A DNA stretch of 64,000 nucleotides from Gammaproteobacteria bacterium. GTDB lineage: Bacteria > Pseudomonadota > Gammaproteobacteria > SURF-13. The notes under the pieces are model-generated. The model made no database searches, was not told the origin of the DNA, and saw nothing but the letters and a program-made list of their open reading frames with translations. This document shows positions 3,566 to 57,253 of this stretch, in pieces. A program made the translations under genes and the position numbers. The stretch's first letter is position 1; each line of letters begins with the position of its first letter. The stretch spans positions 282,848 to 346,847 of the forward strand of contig JACPZD010000001.1 of NCBI GenBank assembly GCA_016195665.1. The letters are read 5' to 3'.

Positions 3566-6052
3566 ATGAAACCCAGACTGCTTACGTTAGCGATTTCGCT
3601 CTCGGTGGCGAGCGCAGCCGCCCAGGCCGACGTCACCTTGCAAGGCCGGGCCATACTCCCCGCCGACACCTTTGCGGCAGGCCCGACTTCCGGCGCCCAT
3701 ATCGGCGGCGGCGCCAATGGCCGAGCGGCCCCCTTTATCAACAAGCAGCCGGTGCAGGGCTTTTCCGCCGTGCTGAAAAATAACGACGGCACGTTTTACG
3801 TCATGTCCGACAATGGCTTCGGCAGCCTGGAGAACTCCGCCGATTATAATTTGCGCGTGTATCACATCCGCCCGCAATTCAAGACCAAGGAAGGCGGCTC
3901 GGGTGAGATTCAGGTCATGCACCATTTTGAATTGCGCGATCCTGACCACAAGATTCCGTTCGCCATCACCCACCATTTCAGCAGTGCGCGCGTTCTCACC
4001 GGCTCGGATTTTGATATCGAGTCCATGCAGCGCACGGCGGACGGCACATTCTGGTTTGGCGATGAGTTCGGCCCGTTTTTGATCCACACCGATGCGACCG
4101 GCAAGGTGCTGGAAGCACCGGTTGCCTTACCCGATTATGCTAATGACGTACAGGGACGTACTAATGTCGCGGGAGGCAGGATGCCGGGAGCGACCTCCGG
4201 CAAGGAAATACGCTCGCCGCAAAATCCCTACAATGAGGAATCAAGCGCGGTGCGGGTGATGAACGCGGTGCGCGCGCATGCTCAGGCAAATGGCGCGAAC
4301 AGTGCGGTGGTGTTCTCGCCCTGGCACGTGATGCTGGATGACGCCAACTCCAATACCTTTGTCGACAACCGCAAGACACCGCCTCTGGGCTCCGGTTTAG
4401 CCGCGGCATCGAGTGACATTTTTAATGTGAAATCCATCAAGTCGGCGGGGTACCCCGTGGTCACCTGGACGGTGAATGACAAGCCGCGCATGCTGGAGCT
4501 GATGAAGCTCGGTGTGAACGGCATCATCTCGGACCGTCCCGATGTGCTGATACAGGCCGCTCAGGAATTCGACGCCAACGGCGACGGCGCGCCTGGCGAT
4601 TTCATTGGCGCCGATGGGCTGATTGACATCAGCAAATTCGACGCGCAAGGCCATCGCGGCGGGCGCAACCTGCGCCCGGAGAATACCCTGCCCGCAATGG
4701 AGGCGGCGCTCGATAATCTGATGACCACGCTGGAAACCGATAACGGCGTGAGCCAGGACGGTGTGCCGGTACTCAATCACGACCCGCACATCCAGGCGCA
4801 AAAATGCCGCCGCGCGGATGGCACGGCTTACACGGAGGCCGATGAGGTGCTGGTGAAAGACCTGACGCTGGCCGAAATACAGACCCAATTCATCTGCGAC
4901 AAGGTGTTCCGCGGCCCCGATCAGCAGAACAATCCTGCTCTTTCGCCGGTGGCGGTAGCCTTCGCCGCCTCGCACGGCCTCACGCATCCCTACGTCATGC
5001 CGTCCACACAGCAACTGTTCGATTTTGTGAACACCTATGTGGATTACTATCGCAGCGGTATAGGCAGTGCACACCCCAACGCCGCGAAACGCTGGAAGAA
5101 TGCGCTCAAGGTGCGTTACAACATCGAGACCAAGATCAACCCGCGCGCCGAGTTCGCAGCCCGCACCATCGGGCACGAACCGTTTGCCGCCACGGTCGCG
5201 ACTGTGATCGCCGACAACGGTTTGCAAACCCGTGCCGACATTCAATCGTTCGATTTCCGCACCCTGCTCGACGTGCACAAGACCTATCCCGGCATCCGCA
5301 CGGTGTTTCTGTTCGGCGATTTTCCGATCTACGCCGATTCGGCCATCGCCGGTTCCGATGACGGCACCAACTTGCAGGACGAACACGGCGCCAACACACC
5401 GTGGCTGGCCGGTCTGCAATGGCCGTATCGCGTCACCAAAGACAGCGCGCCGTTCCGCGCGCAACAGAGCGGCGGATTTGAAGGCATGGCGCTGTCCAGC
5501 GACGGGAGCAAACTCTACCCGCTATTGGAACGCCCGCTCGCCGGTGACGACGCCAAGACCTTGCTGATTCACGAGTACGACATCGCCGGCAAGTCCTACA
5601 CCGGTAAGCAACATAAATACCGTCTGGATACGCGCGGCACCAATATCGGCGACTTCATCCTTTATAACAAGGAAGAAGGCCTGGTGATTGAACGCGACGG
5701 CACACAGGGAGACCTCAACGGCTTTAAAAAGCTGTTCAAGATCGAGCTGGAGGATCACGGCGAGTATGTGGAGAAGAAAGAGGCTGCCGACTTGCTGCGC
5801 ATCAAGGATCCGCATCGCATCAGTGAACCGGTGCAGACGGGCGATGTCGGAACCGGCTTTAACTTCGCCTTCCCGTTCGTGACCATCGAGGACGTGGTGG
5901 TGCTCGACAGCAAGACACTCGGTGTACTGAACGATAACAACTATCCGTTCAGCGTGGGTCGCCATGTCGGCACAAGCCAGCCGGATGACAACGAATTCAT
6001 CCTCATCAAGCTGGAGCAGGCCCTGGATAGCAAGGAAAAGGACAAGAAGTAA
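3566..6052 (+). CDS. Secreted multidomain phosphoesterase: phytase-like esterase domain interrupted by glycerophosphodiester phosphodiesterase (GDPD) domain
   Basis: Signal peptide MKPRLLTLAISLSVASAAAQA after AGGAGG. N-terminal (FSAVLKNNDGTFYVMSDNGFG) and C-terminal (FEGMALSSDGSKLY...FPFVTIEDVVVLD) parts match the phytase-like esterase fold. GDPD signatures lie in the middle (HRGGRNLRPENTLPAMEAA; LETDNGVSQDGVPVLNHD; VTWTVND...GVNGIISDRPD). Confidence 0.8.
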   Translation: MKPRLLTLAISLSVASAAAQADVTLQGRAILPADTFAAGPTSGAHIGGGANGRAAPFINKQPVQGFSAVLKNNDGTFYVMSDNGFGSLENSADYNLRVYHIRPQFKTKEGGSGEIQVMHHFELRDPDHKIPFAITHHFSSARVLTGSDFDIESMQRTADGTFWFGDEFGPFLIHTDATGKVLEAPVALPDYANDVQGRTNVAGGRMPGATSGKEIRSPQNPYNEESSAVRVMNAVRAHAQANGANSAVVFSPWHVMLDDANSNTFVDNRKTPPLGSGLAAASSDIFNVKSIKSAGYPVVTWTVNDKPRMLELMKLGVNGIISDRPDVLIQAAQEFDANGDGAPGDFIGADGLIDISKFDAQGHRGGRNLRPENTLPAMEAALDNLMTTLETDNGVSQDGVPVLNHDPHIQAQKCRRADGTAYTEADEVLVKDLTLAEIQTQFICDKVFRGPDQQNNPALSPVAVAFAASHGLTHPYVMPSTQQLFDFVNTYVDYYRSGIGSAHPNAAKRWKNALKVRYNIETKINPRAEFAARTIGHEPFAATVATVIADNGLQTRADIQSFDFRTLLDVHKTYPGIRTVFLFGDFPIYADSAIAGSDDGTNLQDEHGANTPWLAGLQWPYRVTKDSAPFRAQQSGGFEGMALSSDGSKLYPLLERPLAGDDAKTLLIHEYDIAGKSYTGKQHKYRLDTRGTNIGDFILYNKEEGLVIERDGTQGDLNGFKKLFKIELEDHGEYVEKKEAADLLRIKDPHRISEPVQTGDVGTGFNFAFPFVTIEDVVVLDSKTLGVLNDNNYPFSVGRHVGTSQPDDNEFILIKLEQALDSKEKDKK

Positions 6053-20416: not shown

Positions 20417-21187
20417 TCAAAACTCAAACCGTATTATGTTCTTGGAGCCGGTGATGCCTTCGATGGTGTAGTCAAACTTGGCCTGGTTGTAACTGGTGAA
20501 GGTCAGCTTGCCCGTACCTACTTGGGTGGTACTCACTGACGAGGGGTTGAATGGGTTGGCCCAGTAAGGGCCGGTGGTTTTGTAAACTTTACCGCTGTAA
20601 GCGAATTTTGAAGTGCTCGAGGTAAAAGTCTCCGCGATTTCCCAGGATCCAGGCTGTAGGGTGTACCAAGTGGCTCTGCCCGCCGGATCATAGACATACC
20701 AGGCGGCAAACAATTTATCGTTCATCTGAGTGATGCTGAGACCCCAACCGGATTCAGCCGTGTTCCACCATAATCCTGTGTAATCAAGCAGCGGAAAGGA
20801 CGCGGGACGGTTGATATTTTCATCGCTAACAGTGAACTGGCGGGTTCCCACCACGGTGAAGAAATTCGCATTCCCTGATCGTAACTCTACTTGATAGCTT
20901 CCGGCGGGAAATCGTCCCAGAGTGACATCGAGTGGTAATGGAGCCTGGCCGAGAAACTGAACCTCTACTTCATAATATACAATGATTTTATTGGCCACCA
21001 TAGACACCCGTACAGTAGACGAGGCTACGCTACCAATTTCTGCAGCTAATGCTTGCAAGTAAACAGTATCCTGCCCCTTAGGATTGGCCGGAAGTATGGT
21101 TAAATTTGCCGCCGAGGCTGGGAACATGCTACCTAACAACAGCACGAGCAGCAGGCAACGCGATAGCGATATCCGTGACGTGTTCAT
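20417..21187 (-). CDS. Secreted hypothetical protein (beta-rich), downstream of subtilase
   Basis: Start ATG at 21187 with GGAG RBS. Signal peptide MNTSRISLSRCLLLVLLLGSMFPASA. No family recognised; C-terminus ends ...RFEF. Confidence 0.55.
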   Translation of the reverse strand: MNTSRISLSRCLLLVLLLGSMFPASAANLTILPANPKGQDTVYLQALAAEIGSVASSTVRVSMVANKIIVYYEVEVQFLGQAPLPLDVTLGRFPAGSYQVELRSGNANFFTVVGTRQFTVSDENINRPASFPLLDYTGLWWNTAESGWGLSITQMNDKLFAAWYVYDPAGRATWYTLQPGSWEIAETFTSSTSKFAYSGKVYKTTGPYWANPFNPSSVSTTQVGTGKLTFTSYNQAKFDYTIEGITGSKNIIRFEF

Positions 21188-21285: not shown

Positions 21286-23148
21286 TCAATAACTTGGGCG
21301 ATAGCCATTGTTGCGATACACATAACCCAAGTAGCCGATGTAAGAGGTATAACCTTGGGCCGCCATGTTGGCCTGTTCACTTTGGGGGAAGATCGCATGG
21401 TCATCTATGCTAGTTTTATAGGCCCGGATTAAAAGCTCCGTGCCCGGCGGCTGTGCATAGCCATACGGGTACACATAGCCCTCGATGCCGTCGTATTTGT
21501 AGCCGGCGGCGATATAATTTTTGGCTTCGTTGTAATCCGTGCTGTAAACGTGATCCACATGGTAGGGGTATTGGCTACAAACTGTTGCCCCCTGTACCGG
21601 ATCGCCGCACTTGTAGCTCAGGCGGTACAGCGGCCTTAACTCAACACTGGAATTATACGGATTGCGGTGAGTGGTAAACACCCATGCCTGGGCGCGCGCT
21701 GGTCCGGAGTTTGGAAAATTTGGATACTCCGAAATGGTGTTGCCGATATTACTGTAAAGGTTTACTGGTGAGAATGAGGTAACGTAAGGAGGCAGCGTCC
21801 CCGACATTGCCGCCAAGGCCATCTGCGGCACGGTGGTGTAGAAATAGTCATACACATTGACGCCATAGAAGGCGAATAGCGGGGTAAGCCGGTTAGTAGT
21901 CGACAGCACCGAGGTTACGGCGGAATAAGCATTAGGAAGGCCGTAGCCGATCTGTTGATTGGGTGCATAGGCATTATTTGAGGCCCCCAATAAACGACTG
22001 CGAATATCGGTGGCCGATAAGAGTGGGTTGACCGAGCGCATCAAGCCCACCAGCCCGGTGATATGCGGCGTCGCCATGGAGGTGCCGGTGCAGTTGCCAT
22101 AGCCCGATTGATCGTTCGACCAGCTCCACGAACCGTAGTCCGCGCAGCGTAACCCTGAACTCCACGTAGCTCCCTGATAAAAGGTTGAAAGGATATCGCG
22201 GCCAGGCGCCACCACGCCACGAGTGTCCATGCCCGGACCCTTGGTTGAGCCACTTTCACCACTTGGAGCCGGCGGATTTTCAACCCATAGTGCGCCATTG
22301 CTTTGAGTTGCTCCGACTGCGATGGTTCGACTGTCATTCGCAGGAAACTGGAGTATGGTATCTTCCTTAAAATTTCCAGCCGCAGCCGCGATAACCACGC
22401 TGCGGTTCGCTGCAAATTGCAGGGCCTGACAGTAAGCTTCATAGGGGTTAGCTGGGCAATTTTTGTTGAGGTTTCTCTGTCCGAAACTCATGTTCAGTAT
22501 TTGAGCGCCTGAGTTAACCGTCCAGTAAATACCATTGATGATCGCTGTTTCGGTCAGATTATTGTTACCAGCAGGGGAAACCCTGGTAATGATCAGGGTA
22601 CAGTTCCAACACATGCCCGCAACGCCTCGGGCCGTCGGATTGGGGTGGCCGTACTGTGCGTTGGGATAGGCTGTCTCCGCTGCAATAATCCCCGCAGTAT
22701 GAGTGCCGTGGCCTGCTGCATTAAAGAAAAACGGATACTCATCCACCGACGCCCCAGGGGTGGCCGCATTGTAGGCAAATTGCGGACGGTATTTTCCAAC
22801 GAGATCGGGGTGATTGATTTGAATACCAGAATCAATATGCCCGATGTAGGCGCTGCCGCGCACGACATCCCAGGCGGGGAACATGTTGAGAACATAAAGA
22901 CCCCATTGGTAGCCCAACGGGGAGGTGACAGGTTGCACGTAGGGGTCGCTGGGGGTGACCGAGAACTCCACAGAACCATTCTCACCTACCCAGAGGATGT
23001 TGGGATCCTGCGCCAATCTGCCCTTGGTTTGCCCGGCTTCCGCTGCACTCGGGAAATTGAGGACAATGTATTGTTGGAGTTTAACCTCCGGCGGCTCTTC
23101 GCGTGGTCCCGGTAGTATGGGCGGAAATTCGATGCGTTGGTGAATCAA
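21286..23148 (-). CDS. S8-family subtilisin-like serine peptidase (catalytic domain plus Tyr/Gly-rich C-terminal domain). Signal-peptide segment lies upstream out of frame.
   Basis: Catalytic triad motifs: Asp region, HGTHTAGIIAA and GTSMATPHITG. The ORF as read has no signal peptide; a signal peptide (MRLSSKLNIALYLVTALASAGLYAAAPPPP) is encoded at 23403-23314 in the -1 frame across a C12/G12 run. Confidence 0.85.
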   Translation of the reverse strand: MIHQRIEFPPILPGPREEPPEVKLQQYIVLNFPSAAEAGQTKGRLAQDPNILWVGENGSVEFSVTPSDPYVQPVTSPLGYQWGLYVLNMFPAWDVVRGSAYIGHIDSGIQINHPDLVGKYRPQFAYNAATPGASVDEYPFFFNAAGHGTHTAGIIAAETAYPNAQYGHPNPTARGVAGMCWNCTLIITRVSPAGNNNLTETAIINGIYWTVNSGAQILNMSFGQRNLNKNCPANPYEAYCQALQFAANRSVVIAAAAGNFKEDTILQFPANDSRTIAVGATQSNGALWVENPPAPSGESGSTKGPGMDTRGVVAPGRDILSTFYQGATWSSGLRCADYGSWSWSNDQSGYGNCTGTSMATPHITGLVGLMRSVNPLLSATDIRSRLLGASNNAYAPNQQIGYGLPNAYSAVTSVLSTTNRLTPLFAFYGVNVYDYFYTTVPQMALAAMSGTLPPYVTSFSPVNLYSNIGNTISEYPNFPNSGPARAQAWVFTTHRNPYNSSVELRPLYRLSYKCGDPVQGATVCSQYPYHVDHVYSTDYNEAKNYIAAGYKYDGIEGYVYPYGYAQPPGTELLIRAYKTSIDDHAIFPQSEQANMAAQGYTSYIGYLGYVYRNNGYRPSY

Positions 23149-23314
23149 ATAGCGGGCGTCTTTGGGATTGCCCAGGCGGTTGTATAGACTTTGATTGCGC
23201 GCATTGGCAGTCGGGTTCTTAACAGCGGCAATCAGTTCATCGGGGGTAGCAGGATCGTCTGCGGCGTTTTTATTGTAGAGCAGAATAAGCTCAGTGACTT
23301 CTGGCTTTAGTTGC

Positions 23315-23326
23315 GGGGGGGGGGGG
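23315..23326. repeat. Homopolymeric G12 (C12 on coding strand) tract inside the 5' end of the subtilase gene
   Basis: 12 consecutive G at 23315-23326. With 12 the signal-peptide reading frame hits TAA after 5 codons. With 13 (or 10) the signal peptide joins the subtilase in frame. Confidence 0.9.
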
Positions 23327-23551
23327 CAGCGGCATAGAGGCCGGCCGAGGCCAACGCAGTGACCAGATACAGCGCTATGTTAAGCTTGCTTGAAAGACGC
23401 ATGTTTCTCTCCTCTTGATTCGGGGGGTTAGAACACCAGTCATTAAGCTACGAGATAACTGTTACAGCACGATCACCGTTTTGTTACAGATCTATGAAGT
23501 TCAGGCTACTGCTCTTTGAATCGCCCGTCAAGGCCTTCATCGGGGAGTCTG

Positions 23552-56266: not shown

Positions 56267-57253
56267 CTATTCGTGCGCGGCGCCGGCGGTATTCGGCGGT
56301 ATTTGGTGAGGCTGACGCGAATTGCCCATGGAGATAGGCGGCGCGCTGGTCAGGTAGGCGGCGACATTGTAAATGTCTTCATCCTTGAGCTTGCTCGCCA
56401 CGGCGCGCATCTGCGCCAGCGGGTCGTTGGCGCGGCTGCCATCCTTCCATTTCTTCAACTGATTTACCAGATAGACGTAACGCTGTCCGCCGATGACGGG
56501 GTAGATCGGCAGGGCACCGCGCCCGTTGAACTGGTGGCAGCTGCTGCAGGCCGGTACGCCTTGGGCCGGAATACCATAGAGCACGATGCCCTTTCCGAGA
56601 TGACGCTCACCGACCGGTACGGTGCCGGCCGTCTTGATCTCGTCCAGATTAGAGGCCGAGGCGAGCGCATCGTGATGCACGCTGGACTCATAGGCGGCGA
56701 TGTCGGCCTTGTCCTGATCGGAGAGGGCCTTGGCGACACCGTTCATGACACCCATGGTGGTGTCGGTCCGGAGGTCTGCGGCGAACTCATAGAGCTGCTT
56801 TCTGATGTAAGTAAAGCCTTGGCCGGCCAACCGGGGGGTACCCATATTGTCATCGCCCAGACCTTGCTCACCGTGGCAGGACATGCAGGGCGGGGCCTCG
56901 CCTTTCCCTTCGTTGAAGATCTTTTTCCCGGCCTCGAAATTACCGACCAGCCTGAGCGCCTCGCCCGGCATGGGCATAGGAGGCGGAGTGGCGGGGGCTA
57001 CGACCTCCGGTGGGGTGGGGGTTGCCATGGCCTCCGGATTTTCCGCGGGGACGGGGGGGGCTACTACCGCCGGAGCGGGCGCAATTTCACCCGCCGGGGC
57101 CGAACCGGCGGATTCCGGGGCTGCCGGTGCTTGCTCAACGGCCGGGGCAGACGTGACGCCCGGATCTTCTGACCAAGCTTGATTTGCCGCGACCAAGGCC
57201 AAGGCCGCAAGCGATGCCTTAATTAACCGACGCATAATGAATCCTTCCTCCAT
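56267..57253 (-). CDS. Diheme cytochrome c4-like protein with Pro/Ala-rich linker
   Basis: Signal peptide; two heme sites CMSCH and CSSCH; low-complexity PAPA-rich N-terminal linker. Confidence 0.8.
   Translation of the reverse strand: MEEGFIMRRLIKASLAALALVAANQAWSEDPGVTSAPAVEQAPAAPESAGSAPAGEIAPAPAVVAPPVPAENPEAMATPTPPEVVAPATPPPMPMPGEALRLVGNFEAGKKIFNEGKGEAPPCMSCHGEQGLGDDNMGTPRLAGQGFTYIRKQLYEFAADLRTDTTMGVMNGVAKALSDQDKADIAAYESSVHHDALASASNLDEIKTAGTVPVGERHLGKGIVLYGIPAQGVPACSSCHQFNGRGALPIYPVIGGQRYVYLVNQLKKWKDGSRANDPLAQMRAVASKLKDEDIYNVAAYLTSAPPISMGNSRQPHQIPPNTAGAAHE

Follow-up and report, generated by a model that had tools for sequence, protein, structure and literature searches.

Repeat-controlled genes comparable to the locus

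Phase variation of a protease through a poly-C tract is already known from Neisseria meningitidis, in which the gene for the subtilisin-like protease NalP carries a coding poly-C tract of 6-15 nt and is ON at lengths of 7, 10 and 13 (PMC3723659, PMC5472700); the locus described here would add a further case. NalP (AspA) is an autotransporter lipoprotein with a C-terminal β-barrel translocator, it is produced by a host-restricted pathogen, and about half of the isolates possess the gene in its ON state. The contingency loci of Campylobacter, Haemophilus, Neisseria and Bordetella pertussis combine a 5' G/C run with a surface or secreted product, early truncation, and length polymorphism among close strains, and they occur in host-adapted species that carry many such loci (the 'phasome'). 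An enrichment of repeats near the N-termini of proteins is a signature of contingency (Lin & Kussell, PMC3315296; Orsi et al., PMC2831843), and 5'-biased repeats that act as gene-inactivation devices form the general background to loci of this kind (PMC2831843, PMC3315296). In the inlA gene of Listeria monocytogenes, a short A run is located at codon 8 of a gene for a secreted or surface protein. Programmed frameshift and slippage genes (dnaX, IS elements, rescued endosymbiont poly-A genes) likewise possess two overlapping frames and a slippery run, but in these genes the direction of the shift is fixed, the slippery motif is conserved and a stimulatory structure often follows downstream. Repeat-driven phase variation has been documented mainly in host-adapted pathogens.

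The locus studied here lies in a 64,000-nt stretch of DNA that was analysed as a whole and is referred to as the window. It resembles nalP in that a coding poly-C tract would set the expression of an exported S8/subtilisin-like serine protease (export being predicted here), with the same logic and the same arithmetic. The two genes share the general S8 fold only, and the tract therefore arose independently of that in nalP. Pfam finds only the S8 and DUF5648 domains in the protein, in contrast to the autotransporter architecture of NalP, and no Cys-containing lipobox of the NalP type follows the hydrophobic (h-) region of the window's signal peptide; the locus shares the working principle of nalP without belonging to the NalP-type autotransporters. 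It differs further in its uncultured, metagenome-only host, in the presence of a conserved and predicted secreted partner gene downstream, and in that no ON allele has been observed. The 5' position of the C run, the type of gene product, the early truncation and the length polymorphism among close strains are shared with the contingency loci of host-adapted species; here, however, there is one tract in 64 kb and C runs are otherwise avoided. As in inlA, a homopolymer is found a few codons into the gene of a secreted or surface protein, but it is a long C run at the junction between signal peptide and pro-region. Unlike the programmed frameshift genes, both directions of the shift are needed among the relatives, and no stimulatory structure was found.

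Here, metagenome assemblies alone point to a poly-C tract of polymorphic length that controls the predicted export of an extracellular protease in an uncultured and seemingly free-living clade of proteobacteria. Confirmation would make the locus a natural instance of bet-hedging over a costly 'public-good' enzyme, one that is exploitable by cheaters, outside of infection biology. What sets it apart is its environmental, uncultured host and, despite clear maintenance of the gene, the lack so far of any observed ON allele.

The poly-C tract and the reading frames of the window

The following elements are located on the minus strand of the window:

23407..23416, minus strand: Shine-Dalgarno region AAGAGGAGAG, with its GAGGAG core at 23414-23409, 6 nt upstream of the ATG
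23307..23402, minus strand: signal-peptide ORF of 31 codons plus TAA, MRLSSKLNIALYLVTALASAGLYAAAPPPRN
23333..23335, minus strand: alternative ATG within the signal-peptide codons (TAT GCC read as ATG CC)
23315..23326, minus (coding) strand, G12 on the plus strand: uninterrupted C12 tract that sets the frame of the S8 gene
23149..23314, minus strand: first 55 codons of the pro-region (QLKPEVTELILLYNKNAADDPATPDELIAAVKNPTANARNQSLYNRLGNPKDARY), in the peptidase frame and upstream of the annotated TTG
21286..23148, minus strand: S8 subtilase ORF as annotated, 620 aa from TTG, NCBI MBI3343557.1

A reading of the window made from its sequence only had noted that a G12/C12 run at 23315-23326 separates a signal peptide from the S8 frame, and our analysis confirms this arrangement. 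On the minus strand, the sequence runs ...GAGGAGAGAAAC ATG CGT CTT ... GCC GCT G-C12-GCAACTAAAG..., and the C12 tract supplies the codons of a Pro run at the point where the signal peptide meets the pro-region. No other homopolymer in the 64-kb window exceeds 8 nt; matches to G10 occur with a mean of 0.15 per window in dinucleotide-preserving shuffles, while three overlapping matches were observed. As in a typical contingency locus, the repeat is pure, lies inside the coding region and is found about 75 nt from the start codon. The second-longest G/C run of the window, a G8 at 57053-57060 on the plus strand, leaves the long open frame in which it is located unbroken.

The signal-peptide ORF starts with the ATG at 23402-23400, one nucleotide away from the position (23403) that the sequence-only reading had given, and it ends with the TAA at 23309-23307, two codons past the tract. 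Its predicted signal peptide has two K/R residues among the first eight and a 12-residue hydrophobic core with a mean Kyte-Doolittle value of 2.0; the n- and h-regions of the 31-codon ORF are comparable to those of the in-frame signal peptides found in distant homologues. ASA/AAA motifs are present as well, but the predicted signal peptide is contiguous with the mature protein only at tract lengths of C13 or C10. In contrast, no hydrophobic segment is present in the N-termini that gene callers have assigned to these proteins (MIHQRIEF..., MPLPPPP..., MHRSIPSG...). A promoter scan upstream of the signal-peptide ORF recovered no sigma-70-like site.

The peptidase frame is open from 23379, a position inside the signal-peptide ORF, to the stop codon at 21286-21288, and upstream of the TTG at 23148 this frame contains no ATG, GTG or TTG. 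Because there is no in-frame start codon, the pro-region codons at 23149..23314 are translatable only if they are joined to the signal-peptide ORF. Editing of the tract in silico yields a predicted secreted preproenzyme of 704 aa for C10 and of 705 aa for C13, as had been anticipated for these two lengths from the sequence only, while C11, C12 and C14 lead to termination after 31-37 codons. The alternative ATG at 23333-23335, which has no obvious ribosome-binding site upstream, would, with a tract of C11 or C14, be in frame with the peptidase and give rise to a full-length but signal-less protein (MPLPPPP...). Gene callers have chosen the start equivalent to this codon (ATG; GTG in L001) in three of the related contigs described below (L001, L006 and L013; proteins P0001, P0124 and P0129). 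Since the internal ATG is reachable at tract lengths of 2 mod 3, three states of the locus are in principle possible: secreted, signal-less and null.

The S8 subtilase and its annotation

The ORF at 21286-23148 encodes, as judged from its sequence, a member of the peptidase family S8. When the in silico fused protein is searched against Pfam, the Peptidase_S8 domain (PF00082) covers residues 186-488 with an E-value of 3.1e-40 and 138.7 bits against a cut-off of 21.8, and a DUF5648 domain follows at the C-terminus (residues 613-687). The catalytic triad motifs appear in the order known from subtilisin (HIDSG, GHGTHTAG, GTSMATPH), accompanied by the oxyanion Asn in AAAGN, and they are kept in the homologues.

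In the public record MBI3343557.1 ('MAG: S8 family serine peptidase'), the protein starts at the TTG at 23148 and carries no frameshift flag; the annotation thereby omits the signal peptide together with some 55-56 conserved codons, and the 31-codon ORF is not annotated by NCBI. The Logan gene caller, in contrast, reports the signal-peptide ORF as a gene of 31 aa on a second assembly of the same sequence (L017). Secretome predictions for such genomes will miss this protease because the annotation drops the signal peptide, and the absence of any frameshift flag makes the locus a practical warning for work of this type.

The tract in related bacteria

Relatives of the locus were collected from the contigs of a nine-member protein cluster at 90% identity, to which a profile search and a contig scan each added one further contig. 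The resulting 13 further contigs show 85-92% amino acid identity over the aligned N-terminal regions and originate from about a dozen other metagenome assemblies, some of which may share underlying read sets. Their tracts are as follows:

L001 (SRR13723388): C12
L002-L005, one more contig and L012 (ERZ534009, three SRR28... runs, GCA_023487615.1): C6 (six contigs)
L006 (JGI 3300038550): C8
L009-L011 (JGI 3300038422, SRR12953104, SRR12953084): C9
L013 (SRR28401848): C8
L007 (JACXTT010003260.1): at least C15; the contig begins inside the tract

Signal peptide, ribosome-binding site and an uninterrupted C tract in the equivalent position are common to all 13 contigs. No disruption of the signal-peptide ORF occurs in any of them; its consensus is MRL[SP]SKL...LAS[AT]GL[YC]AAAP, and the Shine-Dalgarno sequence is kept as AGGAGAG, GAGGAAAG or GGAGGAGGG. 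Counting the window together with its relatives, the tract lengths are 6, 8, 9, 12, 12 and at least 15, with conserved flanks. L006 (C8) and L011 (C9) differ, besides the tract, by one mismatch in 2641 nt and have identical peptidase coding sequences; the tract therefore varies at the strain level, and length polymorphism among close strains with conserved flanks, a hallmark of contingency loci, is present at this site.

Conservation within the gene is lowest in the few bases that directly follow the tract on its 3' side; they form a spacer of 7, 9 or 10 nt, depending on the lineage. Because this spacer differs in length, so does the tract length that restores the frame: 10 or 13 in the window and in L013, 11 or 14 in L001, and 7 or 10 in the L002 and L006 groups. 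The lineage-specific combination of spacer and restoring length fits a past co-adjustment of the two. The frame can be read in 13 contigs, among them the window (14 when the second assembly L017 is counted); every one is out of frame, and they represent six lineage/length states. A shift by +1 nt would be needed in the window and in the L002 and L009 groups, and a shift by -1 nt in L001, L006 and L013. A conserved -1 frameshift, considered because the lengths 6, 9, 12, 12 and 15 are all multiples of three, was dropped once the spacer-corrected frames showed both OFF frames.

An ON allele was found neither in any of the assemblies nor in a collection of 15 billion proteins. A profile built from four in silico fused N-termini recovered no signal-peptide-fused allele from a collection of 5.8 billion clusters, no protein that begins with MRL(S/P)SKL and runs into the peptidase is present in the collection searched, and none of the nine members of the 90%-identity cluster begins with the signal peptide. 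The sampled populations have so far yielded OFF lengths only, rather than the ON and OFF lengths that coexist at an established contingency locus, in a small sample of six independent states. The chance of an all-OFF sample under a random phase is about (2/3)^6 = 0.09, which makes the sample odd but not decisive.

Other searches added little. The alignment-based scan of metagenome contigs returned L007 and an unrelated, distant match (L008) only, a single-protein scan of metagenome contigs gave no match, and neither did scans of genome contigs by protein profile and by exact 24-mer. A literature search on the run and assembly accessions matched no paper.

Selection on the gene and ancestry of the tract

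The peptidase is under strong constraint: pairwise dN/dS values among four lineages (675-679 codons) range from 0.10 to 0.16 at dS values between 0.18 and 0.58, and the alignment of these lineages contains no internal stop and no indel-induced frameshift. On the four-taxon tree, the ratio of nonsynonymous to synonymous changes is 12/34 on the terminal branch of the window, 6/19 on the L002 branch and 16/50 on the internal branch; since the ratio on the window's terminal branch is the same as that on the internal branch, there is no relaxation in the window lineage. A corresponding comparison of synonymous and nonsynonymous changes within strains met with near-identical contigs that lack any coding substitution.

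The constraint extends to the part of the gene that the annotation omits. Across lineages, dN/dS is 0.09-0.31 for the roughly 55-56 codons that separate the tract from the annotated start, and this segment can be aligned to the N-terminal parts of homologous proteins with 45-53% identity. Being both constrained and alignable with homologues, this leader is translated sequence, and it can be reached only by translation that begins in the signal-peptide ORF. For the codons of the signal peptide, dN/dS among the relatives is 0.2-0.4. Both halves of the gene are hence under purifying selection.

Homologues at 45-53% identity possess ordinary in-frame signal peptides, and the poly-C tract is absent from L014, the sole distant homologue locus that was read as DNA. 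These two observations indicate that the fused gene is ancestral and that the tract is specific to the clade. The tract is no by-product of codon usage, because Pro-Pro pairs are never encoded as CCC-CCC in 17 other genes of the window (0/21), even though CCC accounts for 34% of Pro codons; C runs are otherwise avoided in the genes of the window.

Synonymous divergence between the window and L002 is uneven along the gene: dS is 0.18 for the gene as a whole but reaches 0.60 over the first 56 codons and 0.90 over those of the signal peptide. L013 possesses a spacer of the window type, but its leader is nearer to those of L001 and L002. When the window segment 23149-23402 is compared with L002 and L013, these sequence patterns suggest that recombination or mosaicism may have affected the surroundings of the tract.

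Interpretation of the out-of-frame alleles

The most probable interpretation, which we hold with moderate confidence, is that of a slipped-strand contingency locus in which the poly-C tract toggles a secreted subtilase ON and OFF. An ordinary gene for a secreted S8 preproenzyme would have gained a hypermutable poly-C run exactly between its signal-peptide codons and its pro-region. The C12 allele would then be a real OFF allele, from which translation initiated at the ATG at 23402 would halt after 31 codons, and in which the peptidase frame would offer no usable start codon from which the 55 conserved codons at its N-terminus could be read. During replication, slipped-strand mispairing would add or remove one or more C residues; C13 or C10 would restore an exportable protein of 705 or 704 aa composed of signal peptide, propeptide, S8 domain and DUF5648, while C11 or C14 would link the peptidase body to the internal ATG and yield a product without a signal peptide. 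With respect to the exoprotease, a population would accordingly consist of a mix of heritable, stochastically interconverting ON and OFF cells; OFF cells would prevail in the sampled habitats, and periodic selection on ON cells would preserve the coding sequence. The reversibility and the rate of switching, the export of the enzyme, the benefit of switching and a polar effect on the partner gene are elements of this model that we infer. A switch of this type had been proposed in the sequence-only reading of the window; the conserved position, the purity and the length variability of the tract, together with selection on both halves of the gene, speak for it, while the failure to find an ON allele speaks against it. 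That all sampled alleles are OFF while the gene is strongly constrained is a concrete puzzle that any explanation of the locus has to accommodate, and several have to be weighed against the slippage-prone switch. It should be noted that readings in terms of a DNA switch, gene decay, RNA-level slippage and error are not fully exclusive of each other.

Long G/C homopolymers suffer from raised indel error on all sequencing platforms, and the window derives from a metagenome-assembled genome, so that a sequencing or assembly error, with a true tract of C13 (or C10) and an intact gene, had to be considered and had been voiced as an option from the sequence only. We assign this explanation only a slim chance. 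The C12 allele was recovered by two different assemblers, since the Logan assembly L017 (SRR12113414) matches the window without a single difference over 4863 nt (100% identity), the C12 included, and none of the other homopolymers of at least 7 nt in the window breaks a long open frame. Moreover, the C6, C8 and C9 tracts of the relatives, lengths that are reliably called by short-read consensus, are likewise out of frame, and since they are so in both directions, no uniform under- or over-calling bias fits the data. A uniform under-calling with true lengths of 7, 10 and 13 was specifically ruled out in this way, as both OFF frames occur once the lineage-specific spacers are counted. The agreement of the second assembly and the out-of-frame state of the easily sequenced relatives make an error unlikely, and the C12 allele is probably real; the differences in tract length among related uncultured bacteria further favour the slippage-prone switch over a sequencing error.

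A real OFF allele might also be the product of decay, with the fragile tract acting as a one-way hotspot that repeatedly and effectively irreversibly inactivates a dispensable protease, so that the sampled genes would be young pseudogenes without any adaptive switching. We regard this as unlikely, yet some observations point in its direction. All sampled alleles are OFF; this holds for all six contigs of the C6 lineage, and a tract as short as that of the L002 group is, given the dependence of slippage on repeat length, too short for quick switching and rapid reversion. Second lesions are, in addition, present in three relatives: in L007 (positions 1-270), about 1.9 kb of the peptidase have been deleted and the N-terminal 26 codons are fused to the last 50 or so; L010 (at about 280-290) has a 2-nt CA insertion 66 nt past the tract; and L013 (at about 1000-1015) has lost 1 nt in the catalytic-His motif GHGTH. 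Taken at face value, these lesions suggest that the OFF state is sufficiently long-lived for second hits and can lead to gene loss, and part of the signal may hence reflect gene loss rather than adaptive switching; some of the lesions, however, are found on low-coverage Logan contigs and could be assembly errors. Decay is difficult to reconcile with dN/dS values of about 0.1-0.4 for peptidase, signal peptide and the ~56-codon leader, with the lack of stop codons at dS values of up to 0.58 (peptidase), and with a terminal branch of the window that is as constrained as the internal branch. It would need six independent and very recent inactivations, all of them caught in the act. Furthermore, the tract has remained pure and has lengthened to 12-15 nt, despite the availability of interruptions by CCG, CCA or CCT, codons that are used elsewhere.

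Lasting purifying selection and the lack of an in-frame DNA allele would be reconciled if the frame were corrected at the RNA level. Polymerases and tRNA-Pro are known to slip on homopolymer runs and CCC-C sites, and slippage of the polymerase on the C run and/or of tRNA-Pro on CCC-C might provide a constitutive, low dose of the in-frame product. We consider this quite unlikely. The relatives would require shifts in opposite directions (+1 versus -1 nt), which excludes a single, directional programmed frameshift. No stable structure was detected, the 116 nt 3' of the tract folding no better than shuffled sequences (z -0.91); C6 is short for polymerase slippage; and the difference between 8 and 9 C residues in near-identical strains is variation in the DNA itself. 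A related and very unlikely reading holds that selection favours the out-of-frame arrangement as the regular condition of the gene, with slippage on the C run serving as a dose limiter for a potentially self-damaging exoprotease. Changes in the length of the DNA tract would then merely tune the efficiency of slippage, and in a variant of this reading the locus would have three states (secreted, signal-less cytoplasmic and null). Such a dose limiter would explain the occurrence of exclusively OFF alleles alongside the strong purifying selection on signal peptide, leader and enzyme.

The downstream partner gene and the gene neighbourhood

The peptidase gene is followed by a conserved partner:

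20417..21187, minus strand: downstream partner gene, 256 aa from MNTSRISL, with its own predicted signal peptide

It begins 98 nt past the stop codon of the peptidase and follows the peptidase in all relatives. This arrangement is also found in L014 (partner at 5163-5903), in which the peptidase is 53% identical to that of the window and the partner proteins share 42% identity (E 1e-59). The minus strand shows no terminator-like site in the interval that separates the two genes; judged from the sequence, co-transcription of peptidase and partner is plausible, and a premature stop in the former would then exert polarity on the latter. The partner protein has no match in Pfam or NCBIfam. Its AlphaFold model (pLDDT 90) is all-β and consists of a sandwich and a barrel; compared with the PDB, the model has no significant match, with small β-barrels as the best hits (E 0.03). 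The protein could be a partner, a substrate or an inhibitor of the protease.

In the window, the segment 19067-19647 (minus strand) contains a gene for a PemK/MazF-type toxin (113 aa, Pfam E 2e-26) and, upstream of it and sharing 4 nt with it, an ORF of 80 aa; the product of this ORF has no Pfam match and is likely the antitoxin, and the pair is located between thiG and trmB. A similar toxin/antitoxin-like pair occupies the same position in L003. Between a comF-like gene and the peptidase, genes for a HigB-like toxin and/or an HTH_3 (HigA-like) protein are present in L001 (4482-4784), L006 (720-1520) and L012 (2067-2816), while the window lacks this HigB/HigA-like insertion and has a 150-nt intergenic gap only (23403-23551).
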